From: a virus
Lineage: Duplodnaviria; Heunggongvirae; Uroviricota; Caudoviricetes
Virus record (IMG/VR): IMGVR_UViG_2737471844_000002
Span: 1-64,000 of that record
Direction: 5' to 3' (one strand)
DNA: 64,000 nucleotides
This document shows positions 11,334-27,893 of the stretch, one piece after another. Each line of letters opens with the position of its first letter. Position 1 is the stretch's first letter. Under the pieces are notes generated by a model. The model was not told where the DNA came from. It was given only the letters and a program-made list of their open reading frames with translations, and searched no databases. The position numbers and the translations under genes are program-made.

Positions 11334-11334
11334 C

Positions 11335-11568
11335 ATGCATCAGGATATCAAAGAGTACAGAGCCGGAAATAGTTGCGCGGCGTATTCGCTGGGCGCGTCC
11401 AGAGCAGAACAACGCGGCGATTATGACGAGGCAGAAAAACTGTGGCGCAAGGCAGCGCAAAGCCCGTGTAGCACCCTGCGCCGCATCTGGGCTGAACATC
11501 GTGCGGAGTTCTGCGCTAACGCTCACCTGAAAGGATGGAAGCCGCCTCATGAACGCGAAGAACTTTAA
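11335..11568 (+). CDS. Hypothetical protein (77 aa)
   Basis: ORF trimmed to ATG at 11335. Confidence 0.4.
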   Translation: MHQDIKEYRAGNSCAAYSLGASRAEQRGDYDEAEKLWRKAAQSPCSTLRRIWAEHRAEFCANAHLKGWKPPHEREEL

Positions 11569-11740
11569 TAAGCAGTATCCGGTAGGGGCTCGCTTCATGC
11601 ACACTGCACATCCTGCGTTGCGTGGTGGTCGTGTAGTGAAAACCGTTTCACCTGCCAGAGATTTTAAATGTGGTTGTGTGGTTGAAATTAATGTCGAGCC
11701 TTATTTCGTAAAAGTCGAAACACTGAAAGCACCGCATTAA
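11549..11740 (+). CDS. Hypothetical protein (63 aa)
   Basis: Six-frame ORF. Confidence 0.4.
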   Translation: MNAKNFNKQYPVGARFMHTAHPALRGGRVVKTVSPARDFKCGCVVEINVEPYFVKVETLKAPH

Positions 11741-12018
11741 TTTAATTTGTTTTTAATTGTTATTTAAAACAGGCGTAAACCCGCCAGGGCTGGCTTACGC
11801 CTGAATCTGAGGAAGTTTATTTATGAATATTGCTAAGCAAAAAAAATTCGCCCACGAAATTAATCTGACAATCGTTTGTTTTAATCGTCTTGCGACCAGT
11901 TCTCAATCGACAGCAGATGTTCATCCAGCGCCGCAGCCAGAACGAACTCCCCACGTTCCTGAAGGCCGTGCCGGAAGTTGCGTAATTCAGAATTCAGGAT
12001 GCTGAGGTTCAGACGACC

Positions 12019-12729
12019 ATGAAAGATAAATACATTGCCAAAATCAAAAAACTGTTACGCCTTGCCAGAGGAACATCAAGCCCGGAAGAAGCCGCTAACG
12101 CTATTGCAAAAGCCCAGGCTTATATGCGCCAGCATGGCATCAGCGAAAACGACGCGGAATTGTTCGATATTCAGGAGGCTGCCAGCGCGGGTGCCCCCAG
12201 TAATGCTGTGATTTCGCCGCGCTATATGCATGTTCTGTGTAGTCTGGTCAGCAATGCCTTCGGGGTTGAATGTTATATCTCCTTTAAATATCTGGAATCT
12301 GGTTCACTCAAACGTTACGTGCGTTTTTATGGTCCTGACAGCCGCCCGGAAATTGCGGCCTACGCGTTTGATGTGCTTTCCCGTCAGATGATGGCAGAGC
12401 GCAAGAAATATCAGGATAAACACTGCAAACGTTGTGGTCCGTCCACGCGGGTGGCCCGTGGCGACCAGTTCTGCGAAGGCTGGGTCTTTGGTGCCCGTGA
12501 TGTCATTGCGGTGTATGACGTCTCCCCGGAAGAAAAAATCCGCCTTGAGCTTTACAGAAAGAACCTGTACAGCACTAAGGGGCTGCGTGACGGGGATATG
12601 CGCACAGCTAAAGCGTGCCGGGGTGCAGAGTTTGCCGCTACTGCCGGTTTTATCGCCGGGAAAAACGCCAGACTGCATCAGGGGGTTAATGGTCAGAGCA
12701 ACAGACCGCTGGCACTGGGGAGGGGATAA
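12019..12729 (+). CDS. Conserved Mu-like early protein (DUF2786-like by recollection)
   Basis: N-terminal IAKIKKLLRLARGTSSPEEAANAIAKAQ motif. Confidence 0.5.
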   Translation: MKDKYIAKIKKLLRLARGTSSPEEAANAIAKAQAYMRQHGISENDAELFDIQEAASAGAPSNAVISPRYMHVLCSLVSNAFGVECYISFKYLESGSLKRYVRFYGPDSRPEIAAYAFDVLSRQMMAERKKYQDKHCKRCGPSTRVARGDQFCEGWVFGARDVIAVYDVSPEEKIRLELYRKNLYSTKGLRDGDMRTAKACRGAEFAATAGFIAGKNARLHQGVNGQSNRPLALGRG

Positions 12730-12731
12730 CG

Positions 12732-12959
12732 ATGGCTTTTAAACTTCTCAGTGTTACCGAAGCAATATACCAGCCGCCCGGAGAACGCCACGAATACAGG
12801 ATGAATGACGGCAGCGCGGCGGTTGAGTTTCCCAAATATCCGGGGGCTTCCCGGTGGCGGTTCTATGACAGTGTGGGACGCCGGATTATTAAAAGAACTG
12901 TGCACAACGCCATGAAAGCCGCCGTAGAGCGTCATAAAAGGAGGTTTAACTGTAAATGA
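12732..12959 (+). CDS. Hypothetical protein
   Basis: Six-frame ORF. Confidence 0.45.
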   Translation: MAFKLLSVTEAIYQPPGERHEYRMNDGSAAVEFPKYPGASRWRFYDSVGRRIIKRTVHNAMKAAVERHKRRFNCK

Positions 12960-13186
12960 ATATTGAGTTTTATGAACGCAATGGTACCGCAGTTATCACT
13001 ATCTCCTGCTGGTTCTGGGAATTTCGCCGTTACTGGCGGGTTGTGGATGCGGCTTTGTTTGTGGCTCCTGACGCGATACACGAAAGCAGTGGCGGCATTT
13101 TAATGATAACCGTCATCACCGGTAAAACGGTCCCGATGTTACGGGCGTTTAAAGTGGCAAAACAGGAGGCTGGCAATGGTCATTGA
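12956..13186 (+). CDS. Hypothetical protein
   Basis: Six-frame ORF overlapping neighbours by 4 nt. Confidence 0.45.
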   Translation: MNIEFYERNGTAVITISCWFWEFRRYWRVVDAALFVAPDAIHESSGGILMITVITGKTVPMLRAFKVAKQEAGNGH

Positions 13187-13466
13187 TAAAACGATAACGA
13201 TAGATATAGCCATGAATGCAGGCATCGCTCTTCTCGGTTGGTGTTACATCATGCTCCGCGCCGGGATGTGGCTGTCCCTTGTATTCCTGAAAACATGGAA
13301 TAAGCACCGTAAACAGACGCAGCAGCAGAAGGCAATGAATGCGTTTTTTGAGGCCTTCGATATCGACAGCATAGAGCCAGGAGAACCAACCCGCGTTATC
13401 CCCGTAGGTGATGTCGTGATTTTGGTATACCGAAGTGAAAAAAATAAACAGGAGGCGGCGCAGTGA
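13176..13466 (+). CDS. Hypothetical membrane protein
   Basis: Hydrophobic stretch IAMNAGIALLGWCYIMLRAGMWLSLVFL. Confidence 0.45.
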   Translation: MVIDKTITIDIAMNAGIALLGWCYIMLRAGMWLSLVFLKTWNKHRKQTQQQKAMNAFFEAFDIDSIEPGEPTRVIPVGDVVILVYRSEKNKQEAAQ

Positions 13467-13627
13467 ACCAGCAAACCAGAATAAGCGATAAGAGCCTGAC
13501 CAGACTGATTGCCGATGCGGACAAGGTGCTGGAGCGAAACACCCCCGTTGCCGATGAGGAATGGTGGCAGGATTTCCGGGCCGCAATGCTGGAACTTCAG
13601 GAACGTCGTCGGGAGGAGTTGAAGTGA
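13463..13627 (+). CDS. Small hypothetical protein (54 aa, GTG start)
   Basis: GTG overlaps upstream stop; below the ORF-track cutoff. Confidence 0.3.
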   Translation: MNQQTRISDKSLTRLIADADKVLERNTPVADEEWWQDFRAAMLELQERRREELK

Positions 13628-13887
13628 GTGAATTAAAGTGTCGAATTAATGGCAATCAGATAGAACCGTGTGCGGTACTGGCAAAAGCACTCGAATATGG
13701 AAATCCAGCCTTTAAGAGTAAAGGCATATTTATCCCGGAACGCGTGAATATAAACACCGGCGAGCCAGGCTTAGACATTGCTCAAATTCACTCCGGCCAA
13801 TATGTCGGTCGTGGTGTTGCCATGTGTTTTTGCCCGTTCTGTGGTGAAAGTCTGAAAACATGGAAAAAGGAGGCAACCAGTGAGTGA
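13624..13887 (+). CDS. Hypothetical protein with CxxC pair
   Basis: GTG start overlapping upstream stop; CFCPFCGES motif. Confidence 0.4.
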   Translation: MSELKCRINGNQIEPCAVLAKALEYGNPAFKSKGIFIPERVNINTGEPGLDIAQIHSGQYVGRGVAMCFCPFCGESLKTWKKEATSE

Positions 13888-14506
13888 AGTTAACTATCAG
13901 GCACTGCGTGAGGTGGCAGAGGCCGCGAAGGGGGATACGACGTGGCAGAACCTACAGGCTTTTCATGCTGCGGCTACGCCGGAGGTTGTGCAGGCGTTGC
14001 TGGATGAAAACGAAAGACTGTGTCGAGATCTGATAGCTCGTAATGGTGAGATTGAAGGGCTTCGGGAGTGGGCAGAAGAACTGGAGGCACGGGAGGTGGC
14101 TTTGCCAGTAGCGTCATGCATTGTTGAAGATGGATGCATGTGTGTTGATGGGTTCAGTGAGTATGTAGGTCACTCGCTGCCTGATGGAATGCATGAGCTT
14201 TATGCTGCCCCGCCAGCGCCCGTAGTGCCTGCATCACTGGAATCAGAGCCGGTGGCGTGGACTGATGAAGAGGAACTGCGCGATGTCAAGCAGTATGGTC
14301 TCGGTGAGATATTTCAGTACCCGCCAGATAAATACGCAGACTCGCGTCGTGTAATCCCGCTGTATCGCGAGCTGCCAGTGCCGGTAGTGCCGGATGAAAT
14401 GTATTGGCAGGATGCGCCAGTTGAAGGCAGCAGCAAAGCTGCTGCATACGCTACAGGTTGGAACGCTTGCCGCGCTGCCATGTTTAAAGGAAAAGGAGGT
14501 GCGTAA
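13880..14506 (+). CDS. Ea22/Ead-like protein
   Basis: NYQALREVAEAA...WQNLQAFHAAATPEVVQALLDENERL. Confidence 0.5.
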   Translation: MSEVNYQALREVAEAAKGDTTWQNLQAFHAAATPEVVQALLDENERLCRDLIARNGEIEGLREWAEELEAREVALPVASCIVEDGCMCVDGFSEYVGHSLPDGMHELYAAPPAPVVPASLESEPVAWTDEEELRDVKQYGLGEIFQYPPDKYADSRRVIPLYRELPVPVVPDEMYWQDAPVEGSSKAAAYATGWNACRAAMFKGKGGA

Positions 14507-14678
14507 TGCGTGTCGCGTTTATCGGTTTATTACCATACCCGACTCGTTTTTGGGCTTCTGCGTTAATGACAAAGCCGCATGTCCTGATGGCTGACAGCAT
14601 CATCCCTGCACCGAAACGCCGTACAGGCATTGCGGCGGCGAGACGAGCAGCAAAGAAACGCAGGAGAACAAAACGATG
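14506..14678 (+). CDS. Small hypothetical basic protein (57 aa)
   Basis: ATG overlaps upstream stop (TAATG); below the ORF-track cutoff. Confidence 0.3.
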
Positions 14679-15175
14679 AAAAACCGTAAGGCAAAAATTC
14701 TGTTAGCTCGCAGAAACGGTGTTGGGGTCTGGCGATGGTTGAGGATTAGTAACAGACGAGTGAGGTTGACGGGGTGTTGCGGGGTGATGTTGTACAGCTG
14801 TTGCAAAAAGCCCAGCGCGGCGCAAAACCGCTGGAAGAATCACACTAACGCAAAGTAATTAAATAATAACCAATAACAGACCAAAACATATGTTTTGGTC
14901 TGCCAAAAGTGATGTTTTGGTCATTATGAAGATTGAACAAATCGGAATGGCAGCTTTCAGGCAACAGGCTGAAAGCGGTGGCGTGGATGAGTTCGTCGTG
15001 CAGCGGTTCAGTGGTGTGTATCACCTCTTCGCTGTGAATCGCCGCGCCGGGGTGTCCTATTTTCTACAGGAACGCCGTGGCGATTACAAGACGTGGCTGT
15101 CTCTTGACCGTGCCGCCGCGTTCCTGTCAGGGATTGGCGTTTCACGTTTTACCGTGCGTTTTGAGGATAATAAAC

Positions 15176-15574
15176 ATGCTGAAAAAGATGATCGGGGCCA
15201 TTAAAGCCGGTCAGGCGTATCTGGGGTGGGATGATGCCCTTTATCGCCAGACGCTGGCCCGCCTGACAGGTAAAACAAGCACCACACGCTGCAACCTCGA
15301 TGAACTGCGCATCATCCGGGAATACATGCACGAACAGGGATTTCCGCGCAAAGCGCCCGCCGGTAAAGGTCGCCGCCCCCGTGTTGCAATGAGCAGAAAA
15401 TCAGTATTATCCAAAATTGAAGCGTTGCTGGCTGATGCCGGTCGTTCCTGGGTGTATGCGGAAGGACTGGCATCTCACATGTATAAGCAACATGTGATCG
15501 AATGGCTGACAGATGATCAGCTGTTTGGGGTGATGGTGGCGCTGGTAAAAGATTCAAGAAGGAGAAATCAATGA
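15176..15574 (+). CDS. GemA-like protein (Mu gp16 family)
   Basis: Position before the Mor-like gene; family assignment from memory. Confidence 0.45.
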   Translation: MLKKMIGAIKAGQAYLGWDDALYRQTLARLTGKTSTTRCNLDELRIIREYMHEQGFPRKAPAGKGRRPRVAMSRKSVLSKIEALLADAGRSWVYAEGLASHMYKQHVIEWLTDDQLFGVMVALVKDSRRRNQ

Positions 15575-16074
15575 TGAAAAAATGGTTGTTTTGTTTAGTA
15601 GGGGTTATTTTATCTTTTCCTGCAGCGGCTGAATGGTACGCAGGTGTACAGGAAGATGCATTCAACGAACAAAAAACAGCTATGCTGGTTGAGTTAGATA
15701 ATGGTCGCTTTGGTGTTGTTTTTGATTGCAACAGTGATGGTTTATTCGTATCAGTTGTAGAAAAATCAAAGAAAACTGAAAGTGTAACCAAAGAGCTTCC
15801 CGTTGATCTAATTTTCAGGATAGATAACCACCCAGCAGTGAAAATGACTGGGGTATTTACACGACGAAATGAAAATTTGTACGGGTATAGATCGGATGAT
15901 GCCAGTAGCATCAAGGAATTGTTATCTTACTTACGTAAAGCAAATGATCGTATTTTAGCCGGTGCTAAATTTTCTGATGAAAAAAGAGGGATATCGTTTG
16001 ATATCACGCCAATCGGCTCCACATCAGGTGTTAATAAATTCATCAAAGCCTGTAACATCACGATTCCAGAGTAA
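15571..16074 (+). CDS. Secreted/periplasmic protein of unknown function (signal peptide), AT-rich cargo gene
   Basis: N-terminal MMKKWLFCLVGVILSFPAAAEW looks like a signal peptide; composition visibly AT-rich; followed by a strong terminator. Confidence 0.6.
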   Translation: MMKKWLFCLVGVILSFPAAAEWYAGVQEDAFNEQKTAMLVELDNGRFGVVFDCNSDGLFVSVVEKSKKTESVTKELPVDLIFRIDNHPAVKMTGVFTRRNENLYGYRSDDASSIKELLSYLRKANDRILAGAKFSDEKRGISFDITPIGSTSGVNKFIKACNITIPE

Positions 16075-16084
16075 CCTAATAGCC

Positions 16085-16110
16085 GCCCCTGCCATGCAGG
16101 GGCTTTTTTT
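16085..16110 (+). terminator. Rho-independent terminator
   Basis: GCCCCTGC-CAT-GCAGGGGC hairpin followed by TTTTTTT. Confidence 0.7.
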
Positions 16111-16173
16111 GTGGTCTGTACAGGCGATCATGTATGGCTATAATAACAGTAAGTTACTACCGGAGACGCCATC

Positions 16174-16641
16174 ATGCAGACCTTCAGTGAAACAGATCTT
16201 CGCGATGCACAGGCACTGCTACCCGATTCCGTGCAGCAACTGATTAGCGTGATTGGCTTCCCCGCCCTGACCCGGTTAATCCGTTCTTTTGGTGGCGTGA
16301 CGTTAAGCGGTAAAACCGGCGCACACGCCGAACGCACCGGCGGTGTCCATGCCCTGTTACATGACGTGCTGACCGAAGACGAAATCAACAAACTGATCCG
16401 CTTTCTTGGCGGTGCGCCGTTTTATATTCCCCGTTGCGATCATGCGTTACGTGCCCTGCGTAACTCCCGTTTTATGGCTGATTTACAGCAACATATAAAA
16501 GGCGGATGCTCACACCGGCAGGCGCTGGCACTGCTTTGTCCACGTTACGGAATTTCAGACCGGTACGCATGGCAACTGATACACCGACGACAAAAACAGA
16601 CTTCGCTGAAAAGCCCCACCCAGGTGGGGCTTTTTGATTAA
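16174..16641 (+). CDS. Mor-like middle-operon transcriptional activator
   Basis: Mor/C family pattern FYIPRCDHALRALRN..., C-terminal HTH-like region, position before the lysis/late genes. Confidence 0.6.
   Translation: MQTFSETDLRDAQALLPDSVQQLISVIGFPALTRLIRSFGGVTLSGKTGAHAERTGGVHALLHDVLTEDEINKLIRFLGGAPFYIPRCDHALRALRNSRFMADLQQHIKGGCSHRQALALLCPRYGISDRYAWQLIHRRQKQTSLKSPTQVGLFD
16613..16635 (+). terminator. Rho-independent terminator overlapping the 3-prime end of the Mor-like gene
   Basis: GCCCCACC-CA-GGTGGGGC hairpin followed by TTTTT. Confidence 0.55.
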
Positions 16642-16666
16642 TGGGCCTCAGAAAAAGGAGACACTT

Positions 16667-16945
16667 ATGACCAACTATACGGCCCTTGCCGAGTATACGG
16701 CCTACTCAGAGCAGGCCCGGGATGCTGCCGGACGCCGCTTCGCTTATATGAAAAATCTGTCCAGCCAGCTAAACCGAATGGCCGAACAACCGGATATGAT
16801 TGTTCATGAAGAAGCGTTGCAGTGTGCCATTGCTGATATTATCGCCAGTGAAAACGAGATGCGAGCCGCTCTGGAAAAAGCAAACGCCTCTGCTCCGCTT
16901 TGCAATAAACCTCTTATTACGCCGGATTCCCTTTCCCGCTTCTGA
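16667..16945 (+). CDS. Hypothetical protein (92 aa)
   Basis: AAGGAG RBS 7 nt upstream of ATG at 16667. Confidence 0.5.
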   Translation: MTNYTALAEYTAYSEQARDAAGRRFAYMKNLSSQLNRMAEQPDMIVHEEALQCAIADIIASENEMRAALEKANASAPLCNKPLITPDSLSRF

Positions 16946-17064
16946 TTTATCACCCCGCCACGGTGGGGTGCTGAACTCCCCCAGCAGTACCTGCCACTCC
17001 ATACCGCCTATCCTGTCCACTCAGTCTGTAAAACACGCAGGGATAACACTCACAGGAGAATTTC

Positions 17065-17457
17065 ATGTCTGAACCCATTTCAGGCAGCGGCGCGGTGGCA
17101 CTGACCATTGGCGGTGCCGGTGTGTACGGCCTTATCACCAATACCGATTTCGGTGTGGTCGTGGGCGCATTTGCCGGGGCGCTGTTTGTGGTCACCCAGC
17201 AAAAAGAAATCCCGGTCTGGCGCATGATTATCCACCTGATTATCGCGTTTGTGGTCGGCGTTCTGGGGGCCGGTGTGGCGGCGTCACTGATGCAGTGGCT
17301 GACCCACTACAACGACAAACCCCTCGACGCGTTATGTGCGGTCGGTGTCTCGGCGCTCTCAATCAAGATTCTGACGTTTATTTATAAACAGGATATTTCA
17401 TCGCTGTTTGGCCTGTTTTCACGGCTGCGCGGCGGAGGGGGTGAAAATGGTAAGTAG
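17065..17457 (+). CDS. Membrane protein, holin candidate
   Basis: Multiple hydrophobic helices, immediately upstream of the endolysin. Confidence 0.5.
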   Translation: MSEPISGSGAVALTIGGAGVYGLITNTDFGVVVGAFAGALFVVTQQKEIPVWRMIIHLIIAFVVGVLGAGVAASLMQWLTHYNDKPLDALCAVGVSALSIKILTFIYKQDISSLFGLFSRLRGGGGENGK

Positions 17458-17743
17458 CGTTGCCGGCATTGTTAACGTCTGGCTGTGTGTCGCCATTGTG
17501 TTCGGGTTGTTCGTGTACCGCCGTAAAGGGGCTGTTCATAAACCTGCGGTCACCTGGGCGGCGTACTGGCTGATGCTCTGGTACGCCATCATCCCGTTCC
17601 GCTGGTTGTTTGGTACGTACACCCACTCCAGCTGGCTGGTTGTGGCGCTTAATCTGGTGTTCTGTGCGCTCATCGTGTGGGCGCACGGGAATTTGTCGAA
17701 AATCCTTTCGTTACTGAGGCATCCACATGAAATCAAAAGATGA
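17447..17743 (+). CDS. Membrane protein (lysis accessory candidate)
   Basis: Hydrophobic segments; overlaps neighbours. Confidence 0.45.
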   Translation: MVSSVAGIVNVWLCVAIVFGLFVYRRKGAVHKPAVTWAAYWLMLWYAIIPFRWLFGTYTHSSWLVVALNLVFCALIVWAHGNLSKILSLLRHPHEIKR

Positions 17744-18272
17744 CATTTTTGATGAAGTCCTGGGCAAAGAAGGCGGTTACGTCAATCACCCGGATGATAA
17801 GGGCGGCCCGACCAAATGGGGCATTACGGAAAAAGTCGCCCGCGCCCACGGATACCGTGGCGATATGCGTGAGTTAACCCGCGAACAGGCGCTGGATATC
17901 CTTGAAGCCGATTACTGGTATGGCCCGCGATTTGACCAGGTCGCCGCATTATCCCCTGATATTGCCGCAGAGCTGTGTGATACCGGTGTGAATATGGGGC
18001 CAACCGTGGCGTCCAGAATGCTTCAGCGCTGGCTGAACGTTTTCAACCTGCGCGGCAGGCTGTACCCGGATATGGATACAGACGGACGCATCGGACCTCG
18101 CACCATCAGTGCATTGCGCGCCTTCCTGAATAATCGCGGTCAGGACGGTGAGCGGGTGATGCTGACGGCCCTGAACTGCACGCAGGGTGACCGCTATCTG
18201 GAACTGGCAGAGAAACGCGAGGCTAACGAATCGTTTGTTTATGGCTGGCTGAAGGAGCGCGTGGCGGTATGA
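17727..18272 (+). CDS. Endolysin, GH108-type lysozyme with peptidoglycan-binding domain
   Basis: GGYVNHPDDKGGPTKWGIT motif recalled as typical of GH108 muramidases. Confidence 0.65.
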   Translation: MKSKDDIFDEVLGKEGGYVNHPDDKGGPTKWGITEKVARAHGYRGDMRELTREQALDILEADYWYGPRFDQVAALSPDIAAELCDTGVNMGPTVASRMLQRWLNVFNLRGRLYPDMDTDGRIGPRTISALRAFLNNRGQDGERVMLTALNCTQGDRYLELAEKREANESFVYGWLKERVAV

Positions 18273-18451
18273 CGCGTCAGCACTGGACACACAGAACGCC
18301 ACGTAAAGCCGCGCGCTGTGTTCTGGCCCTGTTTCTGGTGATGTTGCTTCCGGTGGGATGCACAGACATTAACAGGGCGGGCCAGCTGTTTGACGCGGCG
18401 GCGCAGGTCTGCCGGATTGTTGATGGCATCCGGCAGTGTTCGCAGAACTGA
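18269..18451 (+). CDS. Lipoprotein, o-spanin candidate
   Basis: Lipobox-like LLPVGC near the N-terminus; directly after the endolysin. Confidence 0.45.
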   Translation: MTRQHWTHRTPRKAARCVLALFLVMLLPVGCTDINRAGQLFDAAAQVCRIVDGIRQCSQN

Positions 18452-18472
18452 TTTTTTTGAAGGTCTGACACA

Positions 18473-18679
18473 GTGAGCATTATCAGATTTACAGAATGCG
18501 CAGGTTCAGGGAGCACCAGCGCTGTCATGGTAGTCGCTGAACGCATCACCCATTTTTACCGTCAGTGTGGTGCATATGGTGGCACGATCATTGAGCTGGA
18601 TACCGGGAAAAACGTGTATGTTCTTGAAAATCCCGACAAAGTTAAATGCCTGATTGAACAGGCTCAGAAGGTCACTTAA
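18473..18679 (+). CDS. Hypothetical protein (68 aa)
   Basis: Six-frame ORF. Confidence 0.4.
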   Translation: MSIIRFTECAGSGSTSAVMVVAERITHFYRQCGAYGGTIIELDTGKNVYVLENPDKVKCLIEQAQKVT

Positions 18680-19179
18680 TGGCGTGGTCACAGGATATCA
18701 GGGACAAAGTCCGTAACGGGTACATCTTTGACCAGCTTCCGCTGGATATCGTCGCCATGAAGTACGCCGTGCCGCACGACACCGCGCGGCGCTGGAAAAC
18801 GCAGGCGATGAAGAACGGCGATGACTGGGACAAGCTGCGGGCCGCGCACGCGCTCGCCGGTGACGGGCTGGAAAGTGTCGCCCGCACCGTGCTTATCAGT
18901 CTGGTGGTGAAGTGTCAGACGACGCTTGAACGGCTGAACCAGAACCCGGACATCCCGCCGCAGGAGTCCGTCGAACTGCTGGCGAGTCTGTCTGACAGCC
19001 TCAGTAAGGCGGTGGCCAGCAGTAAAAAAATCCTGCCGGAAACCGACCGGCTCGCCACGGCACTGGAAGTGGTGCAGCGGCTCGGCGCGTTCATCAGGGA
19101 CCGTCACCCGGCGCAGTATGCCCCGTTTCTTGAGGTGCTCGAAAGCTTCGCTAAAGAGCTTGAGGATAATTTCAGTTAA
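18679..19179 (+). CDS. Putative small terminase subunit (Mu gp27-like)
   Basis: Position upstream of the large terminase. Confidence 0.5.
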   Translation: MAWSQDIRDKVRNGYIFDQLPLDIVAMKYAVPHDTARRWKTQAMKNGDDWDKLRAAHALAGDGLESVARTVLISLVVKCQTTLERLNQNPDIPPQESVELLASLSDSLSKAVASSKKILPETDRLATALEVVQRLGAFIRDRHPAQYAPFLEVLESFAKELEDNFS

Positions 19180-19225
19180 CCACAGCGGCCCGGTTTTCCG
19201 GGCCGTCTGATATTCGGGATTTGTA

Positions 19226-19966
19226 ATGCAAAAACAGATTATTGGTAACGCAACGTTGTATTGCGGTGATGTTCTTGATGTGCTGCCGGCGTTATCTGAA
19301 CGTTTTGATGCCGTCATTACCGACCCGCCTTACAGCAGTGGTGGCACACACAAATCAGACCGCAGTATGGCCCCTTCGGACAAGTATGTCGGTCACACCC
19401 ACTATGCCGAGTTCAGCGGGGATAACCGCGACCAGCGCAGCTGGGCATACTGGAGCACCCTGTGGATGTCCGGGGCTGCCCGCCTTGTGCGCCCCGGTGG
19501 TTATTTCATGGTGTTCAGTGACTGGCGACAGCTTCCCACCATGACCGACGTTTTTCAGGCCGGTGGTGTGCTGTGGCGTGGTCTGGTTGTCTGGGATAAA
19601 ACGCAGGCTTCCCGTGCGCCACACACTGGCTATTTCCGGCATCAGGCCGAGTATGTGGTCTGGGGCAGCAACGGAAAACTCGACAAATGCCCGCACGGTG
19701 GCCCGTTCCCGGGTGTGATTACGCAGCGTGTTGTCCCGTCCGCAAAACTGCACATGACCGCAAAGCCGGTTCAGCTGATGGCCGAGCTGGTTAAACCGCT
19801 GGCACCGGATGCGCACGTTCTCGATCCGTTTATGGGAAGTGGCACCACCGCCATCCCTGTACTTGCCCGTGGCGGACGGTTTACCGGCATTGAAATGACT
19901 AACCAGTATTTTGATATCGCCTGCGCACGTATCGAAAAAGCGCAGGCAGAAGCAGCGCAGGTGTGA
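19226..19966 (+). CDS. DNA methyltransferase (N6-adenine / N4-cytosine class)
   Basis: DPPY catalytic motif (AVITDPPYSSGG) and later FMGSGTT AdoMet-binding motif. Confidence 0.8.
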   Translation: MQKQIIGNATLYCGDVLDVLPALSERFDAVITDPPYSSGGTHKSDRSMAPSDKYVGHTHYAEFSGDNRDQRSWAYWSTLWMSGAARLVRPGGYFMVFSDWRQLPTMTDVFQAGGVLWRGLVVWDKTQASRAPHTGYFRHQAEYVVWGSNGKLDKCPHGGPFPGVITQRVVPSAKLHMTAKPVQLMAELVKPLAPDAHVLDPFMGSGTTAIPVLARGGRFTGIEMTNQYFDIACARIEKAQAEAAQV

Positions 19967-19967
19967 C

Positions 19968-21608
19968 GTGGCAAAACGTAAACTTTCCATTAAAGAGTTT
20001 CAGAGAAGCCTGCAGGAGTACATCGCCAACCTCCGCCAGACCATCGAGGCTGAATGTCTGGGGTTCGATGTTAACCCGCAGGCCACACAGGCCCGCCGGG
20101 CGGCAGTCTGCGACCCGGTGACGGGCTACGATTATTTTGTCGAAAACTATTTTCCGCACTATGTCCGCAACCCGGCAAAAAGTGAGCTGCATAAATACCT
20201 GTTCAGCCGTCTGCCACAGGTTGTGGCAAGCCCGGACCCGGAGAACGACGCCATCGCCGCGCCCCGTGGTGAAGCAAAATCCACGCTGGTGACGCAGCTG
20301 TTTACCCTGTGGAACATTATCCGGGCCATTAAGCATTACCCGGTCATCATTATGGACAGTATCGACCAGGCTTATCCGATGCTGGAAGCCATTAAGGCTG
20401 AACTGGAATTTAACCCCCGTTTAAAAAACGATTTCCCGGAAGTGTGCGGACAGGGCCGTGTCTGGCGTATGGGGACCATCGTCACGGCCAACAATATCAA
20501 GGTAACCGTTGCCGGTAGTGGTAAAAAACTGCGTGGTCTGCGCCACGGCCCGTACCGTCCTGACCTGGTCATCCTCGACGACATCGAGAACGACGAGATG
20601 GTGCGTAACCCGGAGCAGCGCGACAAGCTGCATGACTGGCTCACCAGAACCGTGATGCCGCTGGGCGAGGCTGGCGGTAAAACCGATATTATTTATATCG
20701 GAACCATCCTGCATTACGACTCCGTGCTGTCGCGCACACTCAATAACCCGATGTGGAAAACGGCCCGCTTTAAGGCGGTCATTCAGTGGCCTGCCAACAT
20801 GAAGCTGTGGGACGAGTGGGAAGAACTCATCCGCAACAAACAGCCAGAAGCGGCGGAGGCACTTTATCAGCAGAACGAAGCCGACATGCTCGCCGGGTCG
20901 GTGGTGTCATGGGCGGCGCGCCCACTGCTGGCGCTGATGAAAATCCGTGTCCGTGACGGTCACGACACCTTTGATTCTGAATACCAGAACGACCCGGTCA
21001 GCGGTGAAGATGCGCTGTTTGCGGGCTGCATTAAGTTCTGGGTTAACCGTCTTGATGAATGGGTGTTTTATGGTGCTGTTGACCCCAGTCTCGGGAAGAA
21101 GAATAAAAACCGCGACCCGTCGGCCATTCTCGTGGGGGGCTTTAACCGTTTTACCGGCATTCTGGATGTGGTTGAAGCCGATATCCGCCGACGTCTGCCA
21201 AACAAACTTATCGAAGACGTGATTAAGTATCAGCGGGAATACCACTGTCTGTGCTGGTCGTTTGAGTCCGTCCAGTTTCAGGAGTTTCTGCGTACCGTGC
21301 TGGTTGAGCGTTCGGCGGCGCTGGGCGTGCCGGTTCCGGCGCTGCCGGTCATCCCGCTGGAGGATAAGGCGCTGCGCATTGAGTCCCTTCAGCCGCATAT
21401 GGCCAACGGCCTGATTCGTATCAGCCACACACATCAGACGCTGATTGACCAGCTGCGCCACTACCCCAAAGCCGACCACGATGATGGCCCGGACTGTCTG
21501 CACATGCTGTGGACGCTGGCGGTATCGCGCAGCGCAAAATTTCAGATTCACACCCCACGCAGCACCGGGCGTGACCGTGGCGGGCGTTTTGGTTCAGGAG
21601 GATGGTAA
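19968..21608 (+). CDS. Terminase large subunit (Mu gp28-like)
   Basis: Walker-A-like GEAKSTL, acidic nuclease-like C-terminus; GTG start chosen directly after the methyltransferase stop. Confidence 0.75.
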   Translation: MAKRKLSIKEFQRSLQEYIANLRQTIEAECLGFDVNPQATQARRAAVCDPVTGYDYFVENYFPHYVRNPAKSELHKYLFSRLPQVVASPDPENDAIAAPRGEAKSTLVTQLFTLWNIIRAIKHYPVIIMDSIDQAYPMLEAIKAELEFNPRLKNDFPEVCGQGRVWRMGTIVTANNIKVTVAGSGKKLRGLRHGPYRPDLVILDDIENDEMVRNPEQRDKLHDWLTRTVMPLGEAGGKTDIIYIGTILHYDSVLSRTLNNPMWKTARFKAVIQWPANMKLWDEWEELIRNKQPEAAEALYQQNEADMLAGSVVSWAARPLLALMKIRVRDGHDTFDSEYQNDPVSGEDALFAGCIKFWVNRLDEWVFYGAVDPSLGKKNKNRDPSAILVGGFNRFTGILDVVEADIRRRLPNKLIEDVIKYQREYHCLCWSFESVQFQEFLRTVLVERSAALGVPVPALPVIPLEDKALRIESLQPHMANGLIRISHTHQTLIDQLRHYPKADHDDGPDCLHMLWTLAVSRSAKFQIHTPRSTGRDRGGRFGSGGW

Positions 21609-21611
21609 TTA

Positions 21612-23207
21612 ATGGCACAGCTTGTTGATATTTACGGACGCCCGCTGAAACGTGAGGCACTCAAAACCACGCAGACGGTCAGAGTGGCGGAACGGCTGCG
21701 CATTTATCCAGACCACCCGTCGCGTGGTCTGAACATCAGAAAACTGCCGCGCATTCTGGAAGCCGCCGAGCGTGGTTATCTTCCTGCGCAGGCGATGCTG
21801 TTTGCGGATATGGAAGAGCGTGACGGGCACCTGTTCGCCGAGATGGAAAAGCGCAAAAAAGCGTTGCTGACGCTGGACTGGTCGGTGGAGCCGCCCCGCA
21901 ATACCTCGAAGGCAGAAAAGGAGCTGGCCGCCGCCGTGGATGAATGGCTGCACGGCATCCCGGACATGGAGGACATCATCCTCAACGGGATGACCAGTGT
22001 CGGTTACGGCTTCAGCTGTCAGGAAATCAGCTGGGCGTTCGTGGATAAAACGTGGTTACCGGATGCGGTGACGCTGCGCCCGCATAACTGGTTCATTACC
22101 CTGCCGGAACACAATGACGAACTCCGGCTGGATGACGGCGGTCGCGGGGAAGACGGTAAGGACGGTTCCGCGCTGTGGCCGTTCGGCTGGCTGGTTCACC
22201 GTTACAACGCCCGGTCGGGATTTCTGGGTTCATCCGGTCTGTTCCGCGTACTGGTCTGGCCGTATCTGTTCAAAAACTTTGCGCTGCGTGATATGGCGGA
22301 ATTCCTGGAGATTTACGGCCTTCCGGCGCGTATTGCGTACTATGCACAGGGCACCAGTGACGAAGACCGGGACAACATTCTCGAAGCCCTGGTCAATCTG
22401 GGCCATGAAGCGGTGGCAGCCCTGCCGCAGGGTAACGAGATTGAGTTCAAGGAGGCCGCGTCCGGCGGACCGGAGGCGTTCATGTCGATGGTGGAATGGG
22501 CAGAGCGCACCACCTCAAAAGCAATTCTGGGCAGTACGCTGACCAGCCAGGCTGACGGTAAAACCTCCACCAACGCGCTGGGTAATGTGCATAACGAGGT
22601 CCGGCACGACATTCTGGCCGCCGATGCGCGCCAGCTGTCCGGCATGTTCAGCAGCCTGATACAGATGATGGCCAGCCTGAACGGCTGGCAGGATATCCCG
22701 CCACGCCGTCTGCCGCGTCTGGTGTTTGATGTGCAGCAGGAAGCCGACATTAAGGGCGTGGCGGAAGCCGTCAGTGTGCTGGTCAACAGTGTGGGGATGA
22801 AGGATATCCCGGCGTCGTGGGTGCGCAAAAAAACCGGTATCCCCACCCCGAAAGACGGCGAAGAGGTGCTGGTGCCGGTGGCACAGCGTCTCCCTGTGCA
22901 GGCGGGCCTCAGCCAGCTGCGTGAGCGGATGAATGTTGCCGCACTCAGTCAGCAGGACAACGGGGAGGACGACCTGGCACAGAACGCCATCGACCGGGCA
23001 GAGCTTCCGGCAGAGGCCATCGCGCAGGGGATGAACGAACTGGTGGCCCCACTGGTGCAGGCCATACAGGAAGGCCGGGATGCAGACGAGGCCATGAACA
23101 TACTGGCGGAAGCCTGGCCGGAACTGCCGGATGACACGCTGCGGCAGTTGCTGACGCAGGCATTCTTTGTGGCGGATATCTGGGGGCGACTGAATGCCGA
23201 CAGCTGA
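21612..23207 (+). CDS. Portal protein (Mu gp29-like)
   Basis: 531 aa, directly after the large terminase. Confidence 0.75.
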   Translation: MAQLVDIYGRPLKREALKTTQTVRVAERLRIYPDHPSRGLNIRKLPRILEAAERGYLPAQAMLFADMEERDGHLFAEMEKRKKALLTLDWSVEPPRNTSKAEKELAAAVDEWLHGIPDMEDIILNGMTSVGYGFSCQEISWAFVDKTWLPDAVTLRPHNWFITLPEHNDELRLDDGGRGEDGKDGSALWPFGWLVHRYNARSGFLGSSGLFRVLVWPYLFKNFALRDMAEFLEIYGLPARIAYYAQGTSDEDRDNILEALVNLGHEAVAALPQGNEIEFKEAASGGPEAFMSMVEWAERTTSKAILGSTLTSQADGKTSTNALGNVHNEVRHDILAADARQLSGMFSSLIQMMASLNGWQDIPPRRLPRLVFDVQQEADIKGVAEAVSVLVNSVGMKDIPASWVRKKTGIPTPKDGEEVLVPVAQRLPVQAGLSQLRERMNVAALSQQDNGEDDLAQNAIDRAELPAEAIAQGMNELVAPLVQAIQEGRDADEAMNILAEAWPELPDDTLRQLLTQAFFVADIWGRLNADS

Positions 23208-24360
23208 CGATGTTGACCTGGGTTATGCGTATACCCTGAAACCGGAAGAAGCGATTACGTATTTCGAAAGCAAGGGATACGTTATCGGCTTCCGCTGGCA
23301 CGATGTGAGGGACATCGCCAGTGCCCGGGCGTTCACGGTGGCAGGCGTGCTGAAACTGGATGTTCTGAAGGATATCCGTGATGGCCTGACGACGACACTG
23401 GCTGATGGCGGGACGTTCCGGGAGTTTGCAGCACAACTGGAACCACTGCTGGAATCAAAAGGCTGGCTGGGTAAAAAGCTGATTGTGGACGAGGACACCG
23501 GCGAACTGCACGGCAGACAGCTGACGCCGCGCCGGTTGCGCACGATATTTGATACCAACATTCAGTCCGCCTATAACGCCGGGCGTTATCAGCAACAGAT
23601 GGCGAACGTGGCTGACCGGCCTTATTTTGAGCGCGTGGCGGTGATGGACCTTCACACCCGCCCGAAACACGCCGCCCTGAACGGTTTTACCGCCCGGGCG
23701 GATGACCCGGTCTGGGAGTATTTCTACGCGCCGGACGGATACGGATGCCGCTGCCGTATCCGGGCGCGTTCAGCGTCTGATGTGGAGAAATACGGCCTGA
23801 CGGTGCAGAGCAGCGAGGGGCGGCTGGTTGAGGTTGAACAGGAATATGGTCAGCCGGGCCAGACCATCAGAACGATGGGGCTGAAGATGCCGGACGGCTC
23901 CGTGTATACCGCCGACCCGGGCTTCGGATTTAATCCCGGTCGGGTGGCATGGCAGCCGGAACCGGAAAAATACGATTACCGCAGCGCCCGCCAGTATGTC
24001 ACCGGCACTCTGACCGGGCCGGATTTTGCCCGGGGACTGGCGAACGTCAGCGAACTGGATGCGCGCCAGCGATATCCGCTGGCCATCCGTTCACCGGAAC
24101 AGGTCGCCGCCACGGGCGCTGCACGGCAGACGGTAAACCTTACGGCTGATGTCATGAAGCGCCTCAGTGCAGCAGACACGCCCCCGACCGCCGCCGACTA
24201 TGTGCTGATGCAGCAGACCATCGAACGGGCGGAGCATGTCACACAGGACGGCAACGCGTGGCGGTATGCGTTACAGTCGGGCGACCGCTGGTCGGTGGTG
24301 ACGGTGGAGGATGACGCGCTGACAGACTGGGTTATGCAGGATACCCCGGAGGCATCATGA
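23194..24360 (+). CDS. Head morphogenesis protein (Mu F-like)
   Basis: Size and position after the portal. Confidence 0.7.
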   Translation: MPTADDVDLGYAYTLKPEEAITYFESKGYVIGFRWHDVRDIASARAFTVAGVLKLDVLKDIRDGLTTTLADGGTFREFAAQLEPLLESKGWLGKKLIVDEDTGELHGRQLTPRRLRTIFDTNIQSAYNAGRYQQQMANVADRPYFERVAVMDLHTRPKHAALNGFTARADDPVWEYFYAPDGYGCRCRIRARSASDVEKYGLTVQSSEGRLVEVEQEYGQPGQTIRTMGLKMPDGSVYTADPGFGFNPGRVAWQPEPEKYDYRSARQYVTGTLTGPDFARGLANVSELDARQRYPLAIRSPEQVAATGAARQTVNLTADVMKRLSAADTPPTAADYVLMQQTIERAEHVTQDGNAWRYALQSGDRWSVVTVEDDALTDWVMQDTPEAS

Positions 24361-24908
24361 GCAACGGTAAACTGGATATTAAGATTGATTTAAGCGCGTA
24401 TAACACCACGCTGGGGAAACTGATTCGTTCCGTGAAGGACCGGCGCGACCTGATGACTGCGCTTGCGGGTTCCATGCTGGATGCGGTTGAGACTAACCTG
24501 GAACAACAGGGTCGCCCGAAATGGATGGGCTGGAGTCCGGCTTATGCGAAGCGGCGCGGCCCCGGGCAAATCCTTCAGAAGTCCGGGCGACTGGCCGCCA
24601 GTATCCGCTCTGCGGTTAACAATAACGAGGCCACGGTCGGGACAAACGTCCGTTATGCCCGTATCCACAACGAAGGCGGCGAAATCCGCCATCAGGCACG
24701 GACGCAGAACCTGTATTTTAAGCAGTATAAAAACGGCAGCGTCAGCACCCGCTTTGTGAAAAAGCGCAACAGTAATTTTGTACAGAGCGCAACGGTCGGA
24801 GCGTATACGGTCAACATGCCCGCGCGCCCCTTTCTTCAGCTTGTACAGGACGACATCGACGAGCTGGAGAACACCGCAAACCGCTATTTTGCGCGTGTGA
24901 TTGACTGA
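24357..24908 (+). CDS. Virion morphogenesis protein (Mu G-like)
   Basis: Position; overlaps the upstream gene by 4 nt. Confidence 0.55.
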   Translation: MSNGKLDIKIDLSAYNTTLGKLIRSVKDRRDLMTALAGSMLDAVETNLEQQGRPKWMGWSPAYAKRRGPGQILQKSGRLAASIRSAVNNNEATVGTNVRYARIHNEGGEIRHQARTQNLYFKQYKNGSVSTRFVKKRNSNFVQSATVGAYTVNMPARPFLQLVQDDIDELENTANRYFARVID

Positions 24909-25108
24909 ATGGCCAGAAACGCGCTGTAATCGCCTTTGACGACATAAACGCCTCACGGATGAGGCATTACAGCACCGCACCCCATAAATGCCGTCAGAAT
25001 CGTTTTTAAAAGGGTTTTAAAAACGGTTTTATTTCCCCTTTTATCCTTTCGCGTTATGGCAGGGTGCTGAACACCCTCCACAGTACCCCGTGTTCCCCTT
25101 CCGTCATC

Positions 25109-26233
25109 ATGTCGCGTATGAAGATGAACATTGCGGCGTTAAGCCTCGAAATTACTAAAGCAACCCACAGCGAAATCCAGCTGTTTCCGGCGGGCGAGTT
25201 CAGCGCGGTGGATGGTCGCCCGTATACCGATGAAATCGAAAGCGGTAAATGGGTGCTGACTGCTGAACTGGCCGCGCAGCTTGTCGCGCAGGTGGCCGCC
25301 CGTACCACGCCTTTTGTCATTGATTACGAACATCAGACGCTGCGCGCCGTAAACAACGGCAAGCCCGCCCCGGCGGCGGGCTGGTTCAGCCAGGTGGAAT
25401 GGCGAGAAGGTGCGGGCCTGTATGCCATCGGTGTGGAGTGGACGGATAACGCGGCGGCCATGATTGCCGCCGGTGAGTACAAGTTTATTTCCCCTGTTTT
25501 TGCCTACAACAAGCGCGGCGAAGTGCTGGAGCTGTTACACGCTGCGCTGACCAATACCCCTGCGCTCGACGGTATGGACGCGGTCATGCTGGCTGCGGCC
25601 AGCCGTCTGGCGAGTCTGTCAACTGAAACGGAGACCACAACGGTGGATGAAGAACTGTTAAACGATTTGCTGTCCAGTCTGCGCTGGATGCTTAACCTCC
25701 CGGTTACCTCAACGGCGGAAGATATTAAAAGCGAGCTGCAAAAGGTCGTTGACATGATTTCGAACGGTCAGGGAACGGCGGCGGCATCCGTCAGCCTGCT
25801 GACCCTGCTGAATCAGAAAGACGAGCAAATCGCCAGTCTGTCAGCAAATGCCTATGACCCGACGAAGCATATCCCTCTGACGGCATATGAAGAACTTCAG
25901 GGACGTTATGCCGTACTGGCGCAACAGTCCGGTGAGGCCGAAGCCGGGGCACTGATTCAGGCGGCGCTGTCTGACGGGCGACTGCTTCCGGCCCAGGAAG
26001 ACTGGGCAAAAGATTACGCCAGCCGCGATATCAACGGCTTTAAGTCCTGGCTGGATAACGCACCGAAACTTGTTGCGCTCAGTCAGACCCAGACCGGCGG
26101 CAAACCACCCAAAACGCCGTCACCGGCCCCGGCGCAGATTAAAACCGGCGATGACGTCGATGTCGATATCGCCATTTGTTCCATGATGGGCGTTGATCCA
26201 GAGGATGTCGCCCGTTACGCAGGAGATGAGTAA
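25109..26233 (+). CDS. Head protease/scaffold (Mu I-like)
   Basis: Position before the major head protein; start at one of several clustered ATGs (25109..25124). Confidence 0.65.
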   Translation: MSRMKMNIAALSLEITKATHSEIQLFPAGEFSAVDGRPYTDEIESGKWVLTAELAAQLVAQVAARTTPFVIDYEHQTLRAVNNGKPAPAAGWFSQVEWREGAGLYAIGVEWTDNAAAMIAAGEYKFISPVFAYNKRGEVLELLHAALTNTPALDGMDAVMLAAASRLASLSTETETTTVDEELLNDLLSSLRWMLNLPVTSTAEDIKSELQKVVDMISNGQGTAAASVSLLTLLNQKDEQIASLSANAYDPTKHIPLTAYEELQGRYAVLAQQSGEAEAGALIQAALSDGRLLPAQEDWAKDYASRDINGFKSWLDNAPKLVALSQTQTGGKPPKTPSPAPAQIKTGDDVDVDIAICSMMGVDPEDVARYAGDE

Positions 26234-26629
26234 ATGGATCGCAATACCCCCTACCGTGACGGCGAACTGAACCCGGTGCCGGTTGCCGCTGCGACCGAAA
26301 TTTTTGGCGGTCATATGGTGGCCGTTAACGCCTCCGGTTATGCCGTTCCGGCCAGTGCCACGGCCTCACAGATTACGCTGGGCGTGTCTGATGGCTGGGT
26401 GGATAACAGCAAGGGCAGCGATGGCGACGCCACCGTTCTGGTGCGTTGCGGCAAAGCCTTTCTGATGGCGAACAGCACCTCAGATCCGGTCACGCAATCG
26501 CAGGTCGGCAAGCTGTGCTACGTGGAAGACAGCGTGACCGTGGCAAAAACCGACAACAGCAGCGCCCGTCCTGTCGCCGGGAAAGTGATCGGCATCGGTG
26601 ACGATGGCGTCTGGGTTCATTTCAGTTAA
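26234..26629 (+). CDS. Small head-associated protein (possible decoration protein)
   Basis: Between the scaffold and major head genes. Confidence 0.45.
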   Translation: MDRNTPYRDGELNPVPVAAATEIFGGHMVAVNASGYAVPASATASQITLGVSDGWVDNSKGSDGDATVLVRCGKAFLMANSTSDPVTQSQVGKLCYVEDSVTVAKTDNSSARPVAGKVIGIGDDGVWVHFS

Positions 26630-26639
26630 GGAGCGAAAC

Positions 26640-27548
26640 GTGATAGTCAACGTTAAAAACGTCAAACAGATTTTTATCAATCTGAAGGCCACCTTCCAGA
26701 AAGCCTTCGACCAGTCGCCAACTGACTGGCAGAAGGTGGCAATGGAAGTGCCATCAAACGGCAAGGAAAACGACTACAGCTGGTTAAGTCGTTTCCCGAA
26801 AATGCGCGAGTGGATTGGTGACAAGGTCGTCAAATCACTGGCGGCATTTAACTACACCATCCGTAACAAGGACTGGGAAGCCACGGTTGAAGTCGATCGT
26901 AACGACATCGAGGACGACCAGATTATGGGCTATGCCCTTCAGGCGAAAGGGGCCGGACAGTCGGCAGCAGAGCTACCGGCAGATATTGTGGCGTCCCTTA
27001 TCAGTAACGGTTTTACCAATCCCTGTTACGACGGTCAGATGTTCTTTGATACCGACCACCTGGTCGCCGGTAAATCGGTGTCCAACAAAGGCACCAGAAA
27101 ACTCAAAGTTGGCTCGCTTGCCGAGGCGAAAGCCTCCTACGGTACCGCCCGTACGGCCATGCGTAGTCTGAAAGATGACGAAGGCGCATCCCTCAAAATT
27201 CGCCCGAATCTGCTGGTTGTGCCACCGGCGCTGGAGGATGACGCGAACTACCTGATGACCGCCGAGAAGTTCCCGGACGGCACGCCGAACCCGTACCGCA
27301 ATACCGCCGAAGTGCTGGTGATGCCGGAGCTGGCGTCGGATTCTGCGTGGTTCCTGTTTGACACCACCAAACCGGTGAAACCGCTGATTTATCAGCTGCG
27401 TAAAAAGCCTGTTTTTGTGGAGCAGACGGACTACAACAGCGACAACGTGTTCAAGCGTAAGAAGTTCCTGTTTGGTGCCGAAGCGCGCTGTAACGGCGGT
27501 TACGGCTTCTGGCAGATGGCATTTGGTTCTGATGGTACGACGGAGTAA
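26640..27548 (+). CDS. Major head subunit (Mu T-like)
   Basis: AAGGAG RBS then GTG at 26640; about 300 aa. Confidence 0.7.
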   Translation: MIVNVKNVKQIFINLKATFQKAFDQSPTDWQKVAMEVPSNGKENDYSWLSRFPKMREWIGDKVVKSLAAFNYTIRNKDWEATVEVDRNDIEDDQIMGYALQAKGAGQSAAELPADIVASLISNGFTNPCYDGQMFFDTDHLVAGKSVSNKGTRKLKVGSLAEAKASYGTARTAMRSLKDDEGASLKIRPNLLVVPPALEDDANYLMTAEKFPDGTPNPYRNTAEVLVMPELASDSAWFLFDTTKPVKPLIYQLRKKPVFVEQTDYNSDNVFKRKKFLFGAEARCNGGYGFWQMAFGSDGTTE

Positions 27549-27551
27549 TGC

Positions 27552-27893
27552 ATGGAAAAGGTGATTGAAATTACCGCCCGCCGTGAGGGTTTTCGCCGCT
27601 GCGGTGTGGCACACAGTGCAACCACGAAGGCATGGCCTGTGGATGCGTTCACCCCGGAACAGCTGGCGGTGCTGAAGGCTGACCCCATGCTGATTGTGGT
27701 GGAGCGCGATAAAGCGTCCGGCCAGAACGACGCGGCCCAAAGTGATGAACTGGCCGCACAGCTGGATGCCGAGCGTCAGAAAGTCAGCGAACTGACGGCG
27801 CAACTGGAAGAAGAACGCCAGAAAGTCAGTGAACTGACCGCACAGCTGAACGCCGCACAGAAAACACAAAAAGCGGACAAAAAGGAGAAGTAA
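27552..27893 (+). CDS. Hypothetical head-region protein with duplicated coiled-coil segment
   Basis: RQKVSELTAQL repeated twice. Confidence 0.45.
   Translation: MEKVIEITARREGFRRCGVAHSATTKAWPVDAFTPEQLAVLKADPMLIVVERDKASGQNDAAQSDELAAQLDAERQKVSELTAQLEEERQKVSELTAQLNAAQKTQKADKKEK

Follow-up and report, generated by a model that had tools for sequence, protein, structure and literature searches.

The DNA analysed here (hereafter the window) is a stretch of 64,000 nucleotides, positions 1 to 64,000 of the IMG/VR record IMGVR_UViG_2737471844_000002, which is assigned to the Caudoviricetes. It carries a Mu-like transposable prophage, and within the packaging region of this prophage a solitary DNA methyltransferase (MTase) gene lies between a gene for a DUF1804 protein and the gene for the large terminase, terL. 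The features on which the following account draws are listed below, with their coordinates in the window.

5867..42736, + strand: Mu-like transposable prophage with Mu transposase, Mor, Portal_Mu and Mu F genes; its junctions lie in a P2-like gpA
16174..16641, + strand: Mor/C-family transcription activator (Pfam Mor, 1.1e-6), upstream of the lysis-head gene array
18679..19179, + strand: DUF1804 protein, presumed small terminase or packaging DNA-binding partner (Pfam DUF1804, 1.4e-52; PHROG 756 'DNA binding protein')
19185..19206, + strand: G+C-rich 9-bp hairpin, GCGGCCCGG-UUUU-CCGGGCCGU (RNA fold -26.8 kcal/mol, z -3.4)
19215..19957, + strand: cassette-specific segment of 743 nt, in place of which MTase-less prophages have the 7 nt TGTATAC (UMNF18 alignment)
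19226..19966, + strand: orphan beta-class DNA amino-methyltransferase gene, ATG to TGA, an open reading frame (ORF) of 246 aa
19322..19333, + strand: catalytic motif IV, DPPY, residues 33-36, inside TDPPYSSG
19823..19843, + strand: AdoMet-binding motif I, DPFMGSG, residues 200-206
19958..19970, + strand: backbone sequence CAGGTGTGACGTG, common to MTase-less phages (junction alignment and PGAP terL starts)
19968..21608, + strand: large terminase TerL with a GTG start (PHROG 38, 9.2e-143; TIGR01630; PGAP terL)

The initial annotation had described a DPPY-motif methyltransferase at 19226-19966. The ORF has exactly these limits, and its product matches PF01555 (N6_N4_Mtase) in Pfam with 83 bits against a gathering cut-off of 26.7 (3.8e-23), PHROG 67 'DNA methyltransferase' (3.5e-55), and the PADLOC model for Type II MTases (MTase_II, 1.8e-64). 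The AdoMet-binding motif, whose absence from an alignment had been named as the observation that would speak against this identification, is present as DPFMGSG. Both motifs sit in invariant or near-invariant columns of an alignment of about 25 homologues (alignment A1, identity down to 56%), in which the segments T32-G39 and D200-S205 are invariant. The FMGSG of the window protein (residues 202-206) aligns to the FMGSG of M1.HpyAVI and M.BceJIV and is located C-terminal to DPPY, which is the motif order of the beta class. An AlphaFold2 model built on the homologue alignment (pLDDT 82, pTM 0.82) leads to the same class: in a Foldseek comparison with the PDB, the top 40 matches are all beta-class MTases (prob 1.00), and the best of them are M1.HpyAVI, CcrM, M.BceJIV, the rotifer N4CMT, M.MboIIA, M.RsrI, and M.PvuII. 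The window protein is a conserved and apparently functional solitary beta-class amino-MTase.

Members of this class methylate either adenine or cytosine. Characterised N4-cytosine enzymes usually carry SPPY or SPPF; DPPY favours adenine, although it is not proof of an adenine target. Because motif IV of the window protein is DPPY rather than SPPY or SPPF, and because its nearest relatives by sequence and structure (M1.HpyAVI, CcrM, M.BceJIV, and the M.EcoGIX type) are all N6-adenine enzymes, the MTase is probably N6-adenine specific. It is unlikely to be an N4-cytosine methyltransferase, even though the bdelloid N4CMT (8s9m) and M.PvuII appear among its sequence and fold matches, and PF01555 covers both activities, as has also been noted for the homologues KS5 gp20 and KL3 gp28 (PMC3091744).

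As a gene, the MTase is ordinary and already annotated: in 36 complete E. coli genomes, RefSeq/PGAP gives it the label 'DNA-methyltransferase' in this same position. Its G+C content does not stand out. The dN/dS values against other alleles are 0.10-0.32, a range that indicates purifying selection.

The initial annotation had further placed the gene between the small and large terminase genes. For the large terminase this is borne out (PHROG 38), whereas the designation of the DUF1804 protein as small terminase comes from its position. No terminase match to this protein was found among Pfam, NCBIfam, and PDB sequences, and a mediocre single-sequence AlphaFold2 model (pLDDT 70) gave generic helical bundles in Foldseek, none of them significant. 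In a survey of 80 viral contigs picked by TerL alone, 76 have DUF1804 as the immediate upstream neighbour of TerL, often with an overlap of 3-5 nt; this conserved adjacency is the sole positive evidence for the presumed small terminase. The other statements about the surroundings agree with what we find. The neighbours of the MTase are the DUF1804 gene and terL, with no restriction endonuclease adjacent, and no nuclease gene is annotated in the corresponding 40-kb prophage of E. coli E2348/69. The large terminase does begin at the GTG right after the MTase stop, and PGAP places the start at this GTG both in E2348/69 and in MTase-less prophages.

The MTase is separated from the DUF1804 gene by 46 nt and from terL by 1 nt: the TGA occupies 19964-19966, and the GTG of terL starts at 19968. 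Three elements come from the backbone sequence CAGGTGTGACGTG: the end of the MTase gene (its last two codons and stop), the Shine-Dalgarno sequence AGGTG (19959-19963), and the terL GTG. Translation of terL would thus start one base after the MTase stop, from a Shine-Dalgarno sequence inside the last MTase codons. On the other side, the hairpin at 19185-19206 follows directly 3' of the DUF1804 stop; it has no U-tract and was not called as a terminator. It is also found in the MTase-less junction of E. coli UMNF18, which shows that it belongs to the phage backbone and not to the cassette. The hairpin could be a transcript-stability element or an attenuator, and it could reduce read-through from the DUF1804 gene.

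In the wider array, TerL is followed by a Mu-type portal gene and then the Mu F protein gene, and the endolysin and the Mor-family activator are encoded upstream, all on the + strand. Terminator-like and promoter-like sites are located at 16085-16144, just upstream of the Mor/C-family gene, whose product is presumed to activate the operon to which the MTase belongs. A scan for sigma-70-like promoters and intrinsic terminators found none flanking the MTase gene itself. A 60-aa ORF after the endolysin (18269-18451, + strand) has a lipobox-like LLPVGC and matches PHROG 7528, of unknown function; it may encode an o-spanin or another lysis lipoprotein.

The corresponding prophage of E2348/69 is inserted in eutC. 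Its genes include those for a Mu transposase, Mor, and holins, one for an AAA ATPase at the place of MuB, and a complete set for myovirus morphogenesis. A megablast search against the phage collection returned no sequenced phage with the DNA of the MTase region. Among 5426 complete E. coli genomes, on the other hand, this region is found at 95-98% identity in 55. The MTase is present in 36 of these 55 genomes, and its ORF is intact in all 36; the remaining 19 lack exactly the MTase, with flanks 97-98% identical to the window. In UMNF18, for example, the junction reads TAA-hairpin-CTGATATT-TGTATAC-CAGGTGTGAC-GTG(terL), and in the window it reads CTGATATT-[743 nt, 19215-19957]-CAGGTGTGAC-GTG. 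The MTase is therefore cargo that this prophage lineage may carry or lack, an optional cassette in the DUF1804/terL junction. Of the features that mark a 'moron' or cargo gene, it has presence or absence with clean boundaries, and it does not have a promoter and terminator of its own. A simple repeat-mediated deletion was considered as the origin of the MTase-less allele and rejected, because TGTA is all that the two junctions have in common.

A gene that a lineage can do without might be a decaying or functionless passenger. This explanation is highly improbable here, since the ORF is intact in every one of the 36 genomes, the catalytic residues are invariant, and dN/dS stays at 0.1-0.3.

The survey anchored on TerL extends the picture beyond E. 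coli prophages. The MTase fills the gap in 14 of the 23 contigs with TerL at 88% or above, and 8 of 22 close viral contigs are without the gene. Among about 54 informative contigs with TerL at 81% or below, the MTase was found in none, and several of these contigs have unrelated ORFs of 65-99 aa in a DUF1804/terL gap of 0.2-0.6 kb. This pattern suggests that the tight DUF1804/terL junction is ancestral and that the junction serves as a general slot for cargo genes. The small-ORF junctions are those of loci L183, L187, L195, L199, L180, L181, and L235, and one of the ORFs has a lipoprotein-like signal sequence. When distant Mu-like phages were sought through the MTase instead, the gene was found before TerL in three Serratia loci (L011, L012, and L108) and one metagenomic locus (L113), between the portal and Mu F genes in L119, L121, and L147, and right after Mor in L103.

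Two further observations concern variation at this place. Two MTase alleles, with about 92% and about 99% amino acid identity to the window protein, are found beside TerL genes that are 99% identical in both (L165, L167, L172, L173, L192, and L193 versus L174 and L176); the cassette has diverged further than its flanks, a pattern that points to recombination having exchanged alleles. In E. coli RM9088 (L163, 1-2549), an IS66 element stands upstream of the MTase at the expected place of DUF1804, and the MTase and terL are intact.

The family to which the MTase belongs is very large and almost always phage-borne. With a limit of E <= 1e-5, at least 7500 proteins in the database are matches; scans of genomes and viral sequences add hundreds of loci with 46-99% identity, in Enterobacterales, Betaproteobacteria, Negativicutes, Planctomycetota, Chloroflexota, and others. 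Sequenced phages with homologues at 43-55% identity include Escherichia phage Chuche, Bordetella phage BPP-1 (bpm), Stenotrophomonas phage Smp131, P2-like phages of Burkholderia and Ralstonia, and phages of mycobacteria, Gordonia, and Propionibacterium. The gene neighbours of the family fall into at least 80 clusters on each side, including tail sheath, resolvase, integrase, primase, lysozyme, portal, terminase, and other methylase genes. Restriction-type domains occur in one of about 110 representative neighbours in the sampled family loci.

These contexts bear on the idea that the MTase serves the DNA transactions or regulation of the phage itself, for example by marking pac for the terminase or by controlling late promoters. 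There is a precedent in phage P1, in which Dam methylation governs pac cleavage. The position of the gene between two packaging genes, with its stop coupled to the terL start, would suit such a role, and the same junction or the portal/Mu F junction holds family members in other Mu-like phages. However, 19 of the 55 near-identical E. coli prophages and 8 of the 22 close viral contigs lack the gene with the terL start region identical, and family members stand in dozens of unrelated contexts, beside tail sheath, integrase, primase, lysozyme, and Com genes. Because near-identical phages lack the gene and the contexts are so many and unrelated, a packaging-specific role is quite unlikely.

The Com genes, which encode translational regulators of the type known from Mu, deserve separate mention. 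In 37 of 160 family loci, an ORF with the signature of Mu Com (IRCxxCxxKLA...IKCPRC) ends at the MTase start; many of these 37 loci are redundant, yet they come from several lineages. Two representatives of the Com-type ORFs match Pfam Zn_ribbon_Com, and in phage Chuche a 'gpCom control of modification' gene is annotated beside an MTase homologue of 55% identity. The same com-MTase pairing is known from Burkholderia phage KS5, in gp21 (Com) and gp20 (MTase) (PMC3091744). With Com ORFs directly upstream of these homologues, the Com-linked members can be placed, on the basis of their gene order, in the regulatory slot that Mom holds in Mu. The window copy has no Com upstream: the upstream gene is DUF1804, and no CxxC..CxxC ORF is present there.

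How does the enzyme compare with methylases already described? The CHARACTERISED enzymes compared with the window MTase were Hia5/Hin1523/Nma1821, M.EcoGII, CcrM, YhdJ, and the plasmid leading-region methylases. Within its own family, the methylases of KS5 (gp20), Chuche, BPP-1 (Bpm), and Smp131 share 43-55% identity with it over more than 90% of the length, and they agree with it in size, in motifs, and in being solitary and phage-borne. They differ in location: their genes are close to those for tail proteins or integrase, in several cases with Com directly ahead, whereas the window copy is without Com and inside the packaging pair. The initial annotation had proposed that the target be predicted from homology, but the literature searched yielded no published target sequence for the KS5, Chuche, BPP-1, or Smp131 methylases, no specificity for any close homologue, and no expression, methylation, or restriction data for family members above 40% identity.

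Outside the family, the best characterised relative is the 'DNA methylase' encoded in the leading regions of conjugative plasmids; a tblastn search matched more than 5000 plasmids, with about 27% identity along the whole protein. An IncI1 example adjoins the gene for an antirestriction protein (ArdA) and ssb. In hhalign, the window MTase and the IncI1 methylase align with a probability of 99.8% (E 4e-28, 29% identity, 213 columns), and the alignment spans the central K..S.A..GY.RH..EY segment, where DNA recognition is expected in the beta class. M.EcoGIX and M.BceJIII, plasmid enzymes of this kind, produce m6A at SAY on single strands and help plasmids to escape restriction on entry (PMC7736820). 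Like the window protein, these enzymes (IncI1/IncF and Burkholderia plasmids; about 227 aa) are of the beta class, have DPPY, are orphans, and are borne by a mobile element. They are silent in the resident host and protect incoming DNA from restriction, acting on the entering single strand at SAY. Against the NCBIfam model of the M.EcoGIX type (NF010253 / PRK13699), the window MTase scores 74.4 bits with a cut-off of 244. It likely resembles the M.EcoGIX type in its mode of action, yet it is not a member.

The closest solved structure is M1.HpyAVI (PDB 5hfj/5hek), with a profile E of 1.5e-28 over nearly the whole chain and a Foldseek E of 2.7e-14. At 232 aa, this N6-adenine enzyme is, like the window MTase, a minimal beta-class protein without a large recognition domain. 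It differs in that it is a chromosomal enzyme of Helicobacter pylori with a GAGG-type target, and the two share about 23% identity.

Several other assignments were tried and rejected. Hia5, Hin1523, and Nma1821, which replace Mom in FluMu-type prophages, are Dam-like alpha-class enzymes with motif I before motif IV (PMC3299994); the window MTase has the opposite order and does not belong to the Hia5/Hin1523 family, in which FxGxG precedes DPPY; any kinship goes no further than the superfamily. Its likeness to Mom and Hia5 is a functional analogy only, namely late adenine modification by a Mu-like phage with protection from many restriction enzymes. Mom has an acyltransferase fold, and Mom and Hia5 are located at the right end, whereas the window MTase is at the packaging junction. 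M.EcoGII, a prophage-borne beta-class enzyme of 349 aa, is non-specific and silent in the lysogen (PMC5778455, PMC7544214). Membership in its family was rejected because the alignment is confined to the core motifs near the two termini (BLASTP 3e-5 over 64 residues; 60 C-terminal columns in hhalign), and the central region of M.EcoGII is about 100 residues longer than that of the window MTase. The matches to CcrM (NF050803; 54 versus 830 bits) and YhdJ (NF008572; 40 versus 292 bits) are limited to the region of motif I at the C-terminal end, and the window protein is an equivalog of neither.

It is speculative, but several features together suggest that the target is a short or degenerate site: the small size of the enzyme, the targets of its nearest relatives (SAY and GAGG), a central segment preserved across phyla, and the frequent control of the family by Com. 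A stronger version of this thought is that the MTase is a promiscuous adenine methylase of a short motif, maybe like the SAY-specific, single-strand-preferring M.EcoGIX and M.BceJIII, which would give broad protection rather than mimic one restriction-modification system. We regard this as possible but rather doubtful. Its closest characterised relative is the M.EcoGIX-type plasmid methylase, with SAY specificity and a full-length alignment (PMC7736820), and the window MTase is among the smallest beta-class enzymes, like M1.HpyAVI. The central segment KT.SSRAPHTGYFRHQ.EY, which presumably contacts DNA, is nearly invariant across homologues of the Enterobacterales and Betaproteobacteria. Loci and phages of Negativicutes, Planctomycetota, Chloroflexota, and actinobacterial hosts keep 46-55% identity, which would be unexpected if the target tracked host-specific restriction-modification systems, and frequent Com control suggests that the enzyme is toxic when expressed. 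On the other hand, the plasmid enzymes share only 29% identity with the window MTase, the score is below the NCBIfam cut-off (74 versus 244 bits), and a recognition loop would be conserved just as well if the target were a single fixed, specific site. With the same reserve, one may ask whether, besides the alpha-class Hia5 and the beta-class M.EcoGII, quasi non-specific adenine methylases of phages have arisen independently a third time, with the window MTase as a minimal beta-class form related to the entry methylases of plasmids. A lineage of this kind would explain both the near-unchanged recognition segment across phyla and the control of many copies by Com, but we hold it to be a tentative idea with the odds against it.

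The reading that we prefer, and consider likely, is that the gene encodes an active solitary beta-class amino-MTase, carried as an optional cassette, which methylates progeny DNA late in infection as an anti-restriction measure, in keeping with what the initial annotation had proposed. Late gene control in Mu is the basis for the timing proposed here. Because no promoter or terminator belonging to the gene itself could be recognised, the gene would most likely stay silent in the lysogen; after induction, the Mor/C-type activator would switch on the late lysis-head operon and the MTase along with it. Enzyme produced while genomes are being packaged would methylate adenines of the replicated phage DNA, and of host DNA too, and the progeny genomes would enter the next cell already protected against restriction systems that are sensitive to adenine methylation. 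The timing of expression, the choice of adenine over cytosine, and the anti-restriction role are what we infer; late timing and anti-restriction are backed indirectly by the Com-linked homologues and by the homology to anti-restriction methylases of plasmids. A point that counts against this explanation is that the phage clearly survives without the MTase, as the MTase-less sister prophages demonstrate.

By analogy, the role of the MTase would most likely correspond to that of Mom in phage Mu, which is absent from this prophage: at its right end in the window, the ORFs are tail-fibre genes only, and no com or mom was found in E2348/69 either. The MTase-less prophage of UMNF18 likewise has no com or mom. 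Mutual exclusivity of MTase and Mom was therefore rejected, since neither the MTase-carrying prophages (window and E2348/69) nor the MTase-less one (UMNF18) have com/mom. In other words, the MTase is an optional addition and not a strict replacement of Mom, because the MTase-less sister is also without com/mom.

Orphan phage methyltransferases are a well-described anti-restriction device, and to that extent the gene carries little weight beyond its annotation. What is added to the annotation is the optional nature of the cassette, the cargo slot between DUF1804 and terL, the Com-linked homologues, and the homology to plasmid entry methylases. The natural versions of the same Mu-like prophage with and without the MTase in sequenced E. 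coli are a ready-made isogenic pair for measuring the benefit of the gene. Since the family is very large, spans many phyla, and is without a published specificity, one methylome would annotate thousands of genes. The family could also yield another low-specificity m6A enzyme for footprinting methods.

Some observations concern the mobility of the prophage and the DNA around it. By transposition, the Mu-like prophage has come to lie inside gene A (gpA), the replication gene of a P2-like prophage, which it splits (window positions 5610-5876 and 42737-45291). The junctions are at 5866|5867 and 42735/42736, with the target (A)CACG duplicated at both (4 or 5 bp, ambiguous), and the ends of the element read TGTGGGGTAGTGATCAATTCTGGACT... 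on the left and ...AGTCCAGAAAAAATCGCGAAGTTACA on the right. The P2-like prophage is uninterrupted in E. coli VG35A2. In the window, it carries an IetAS anti-phage defence pair at 47022-50305 on the + strand (PADLOC IetA 3.6e-89, IetS 6.6e-41), with a ParM-type segregation gene upstream of the pair at 45368-46327. In UMNF18 (L246, 8245-13001), the right end of the MTase-less prophage runs into the tail fibre, sheath, and tube genes of another myovirus-type element, an arrangement that suggests another phage-in-phage insertion. Finally, the 200-kb plasmid NZ_CP043265.1 of Escherichia albertii carries a copy of the MTase with 98% identity (165761-166498), and among the E. coli matches two are also plasmid-borne; from these copies, the Mu-like phage evidently inserts into plasmids as well.
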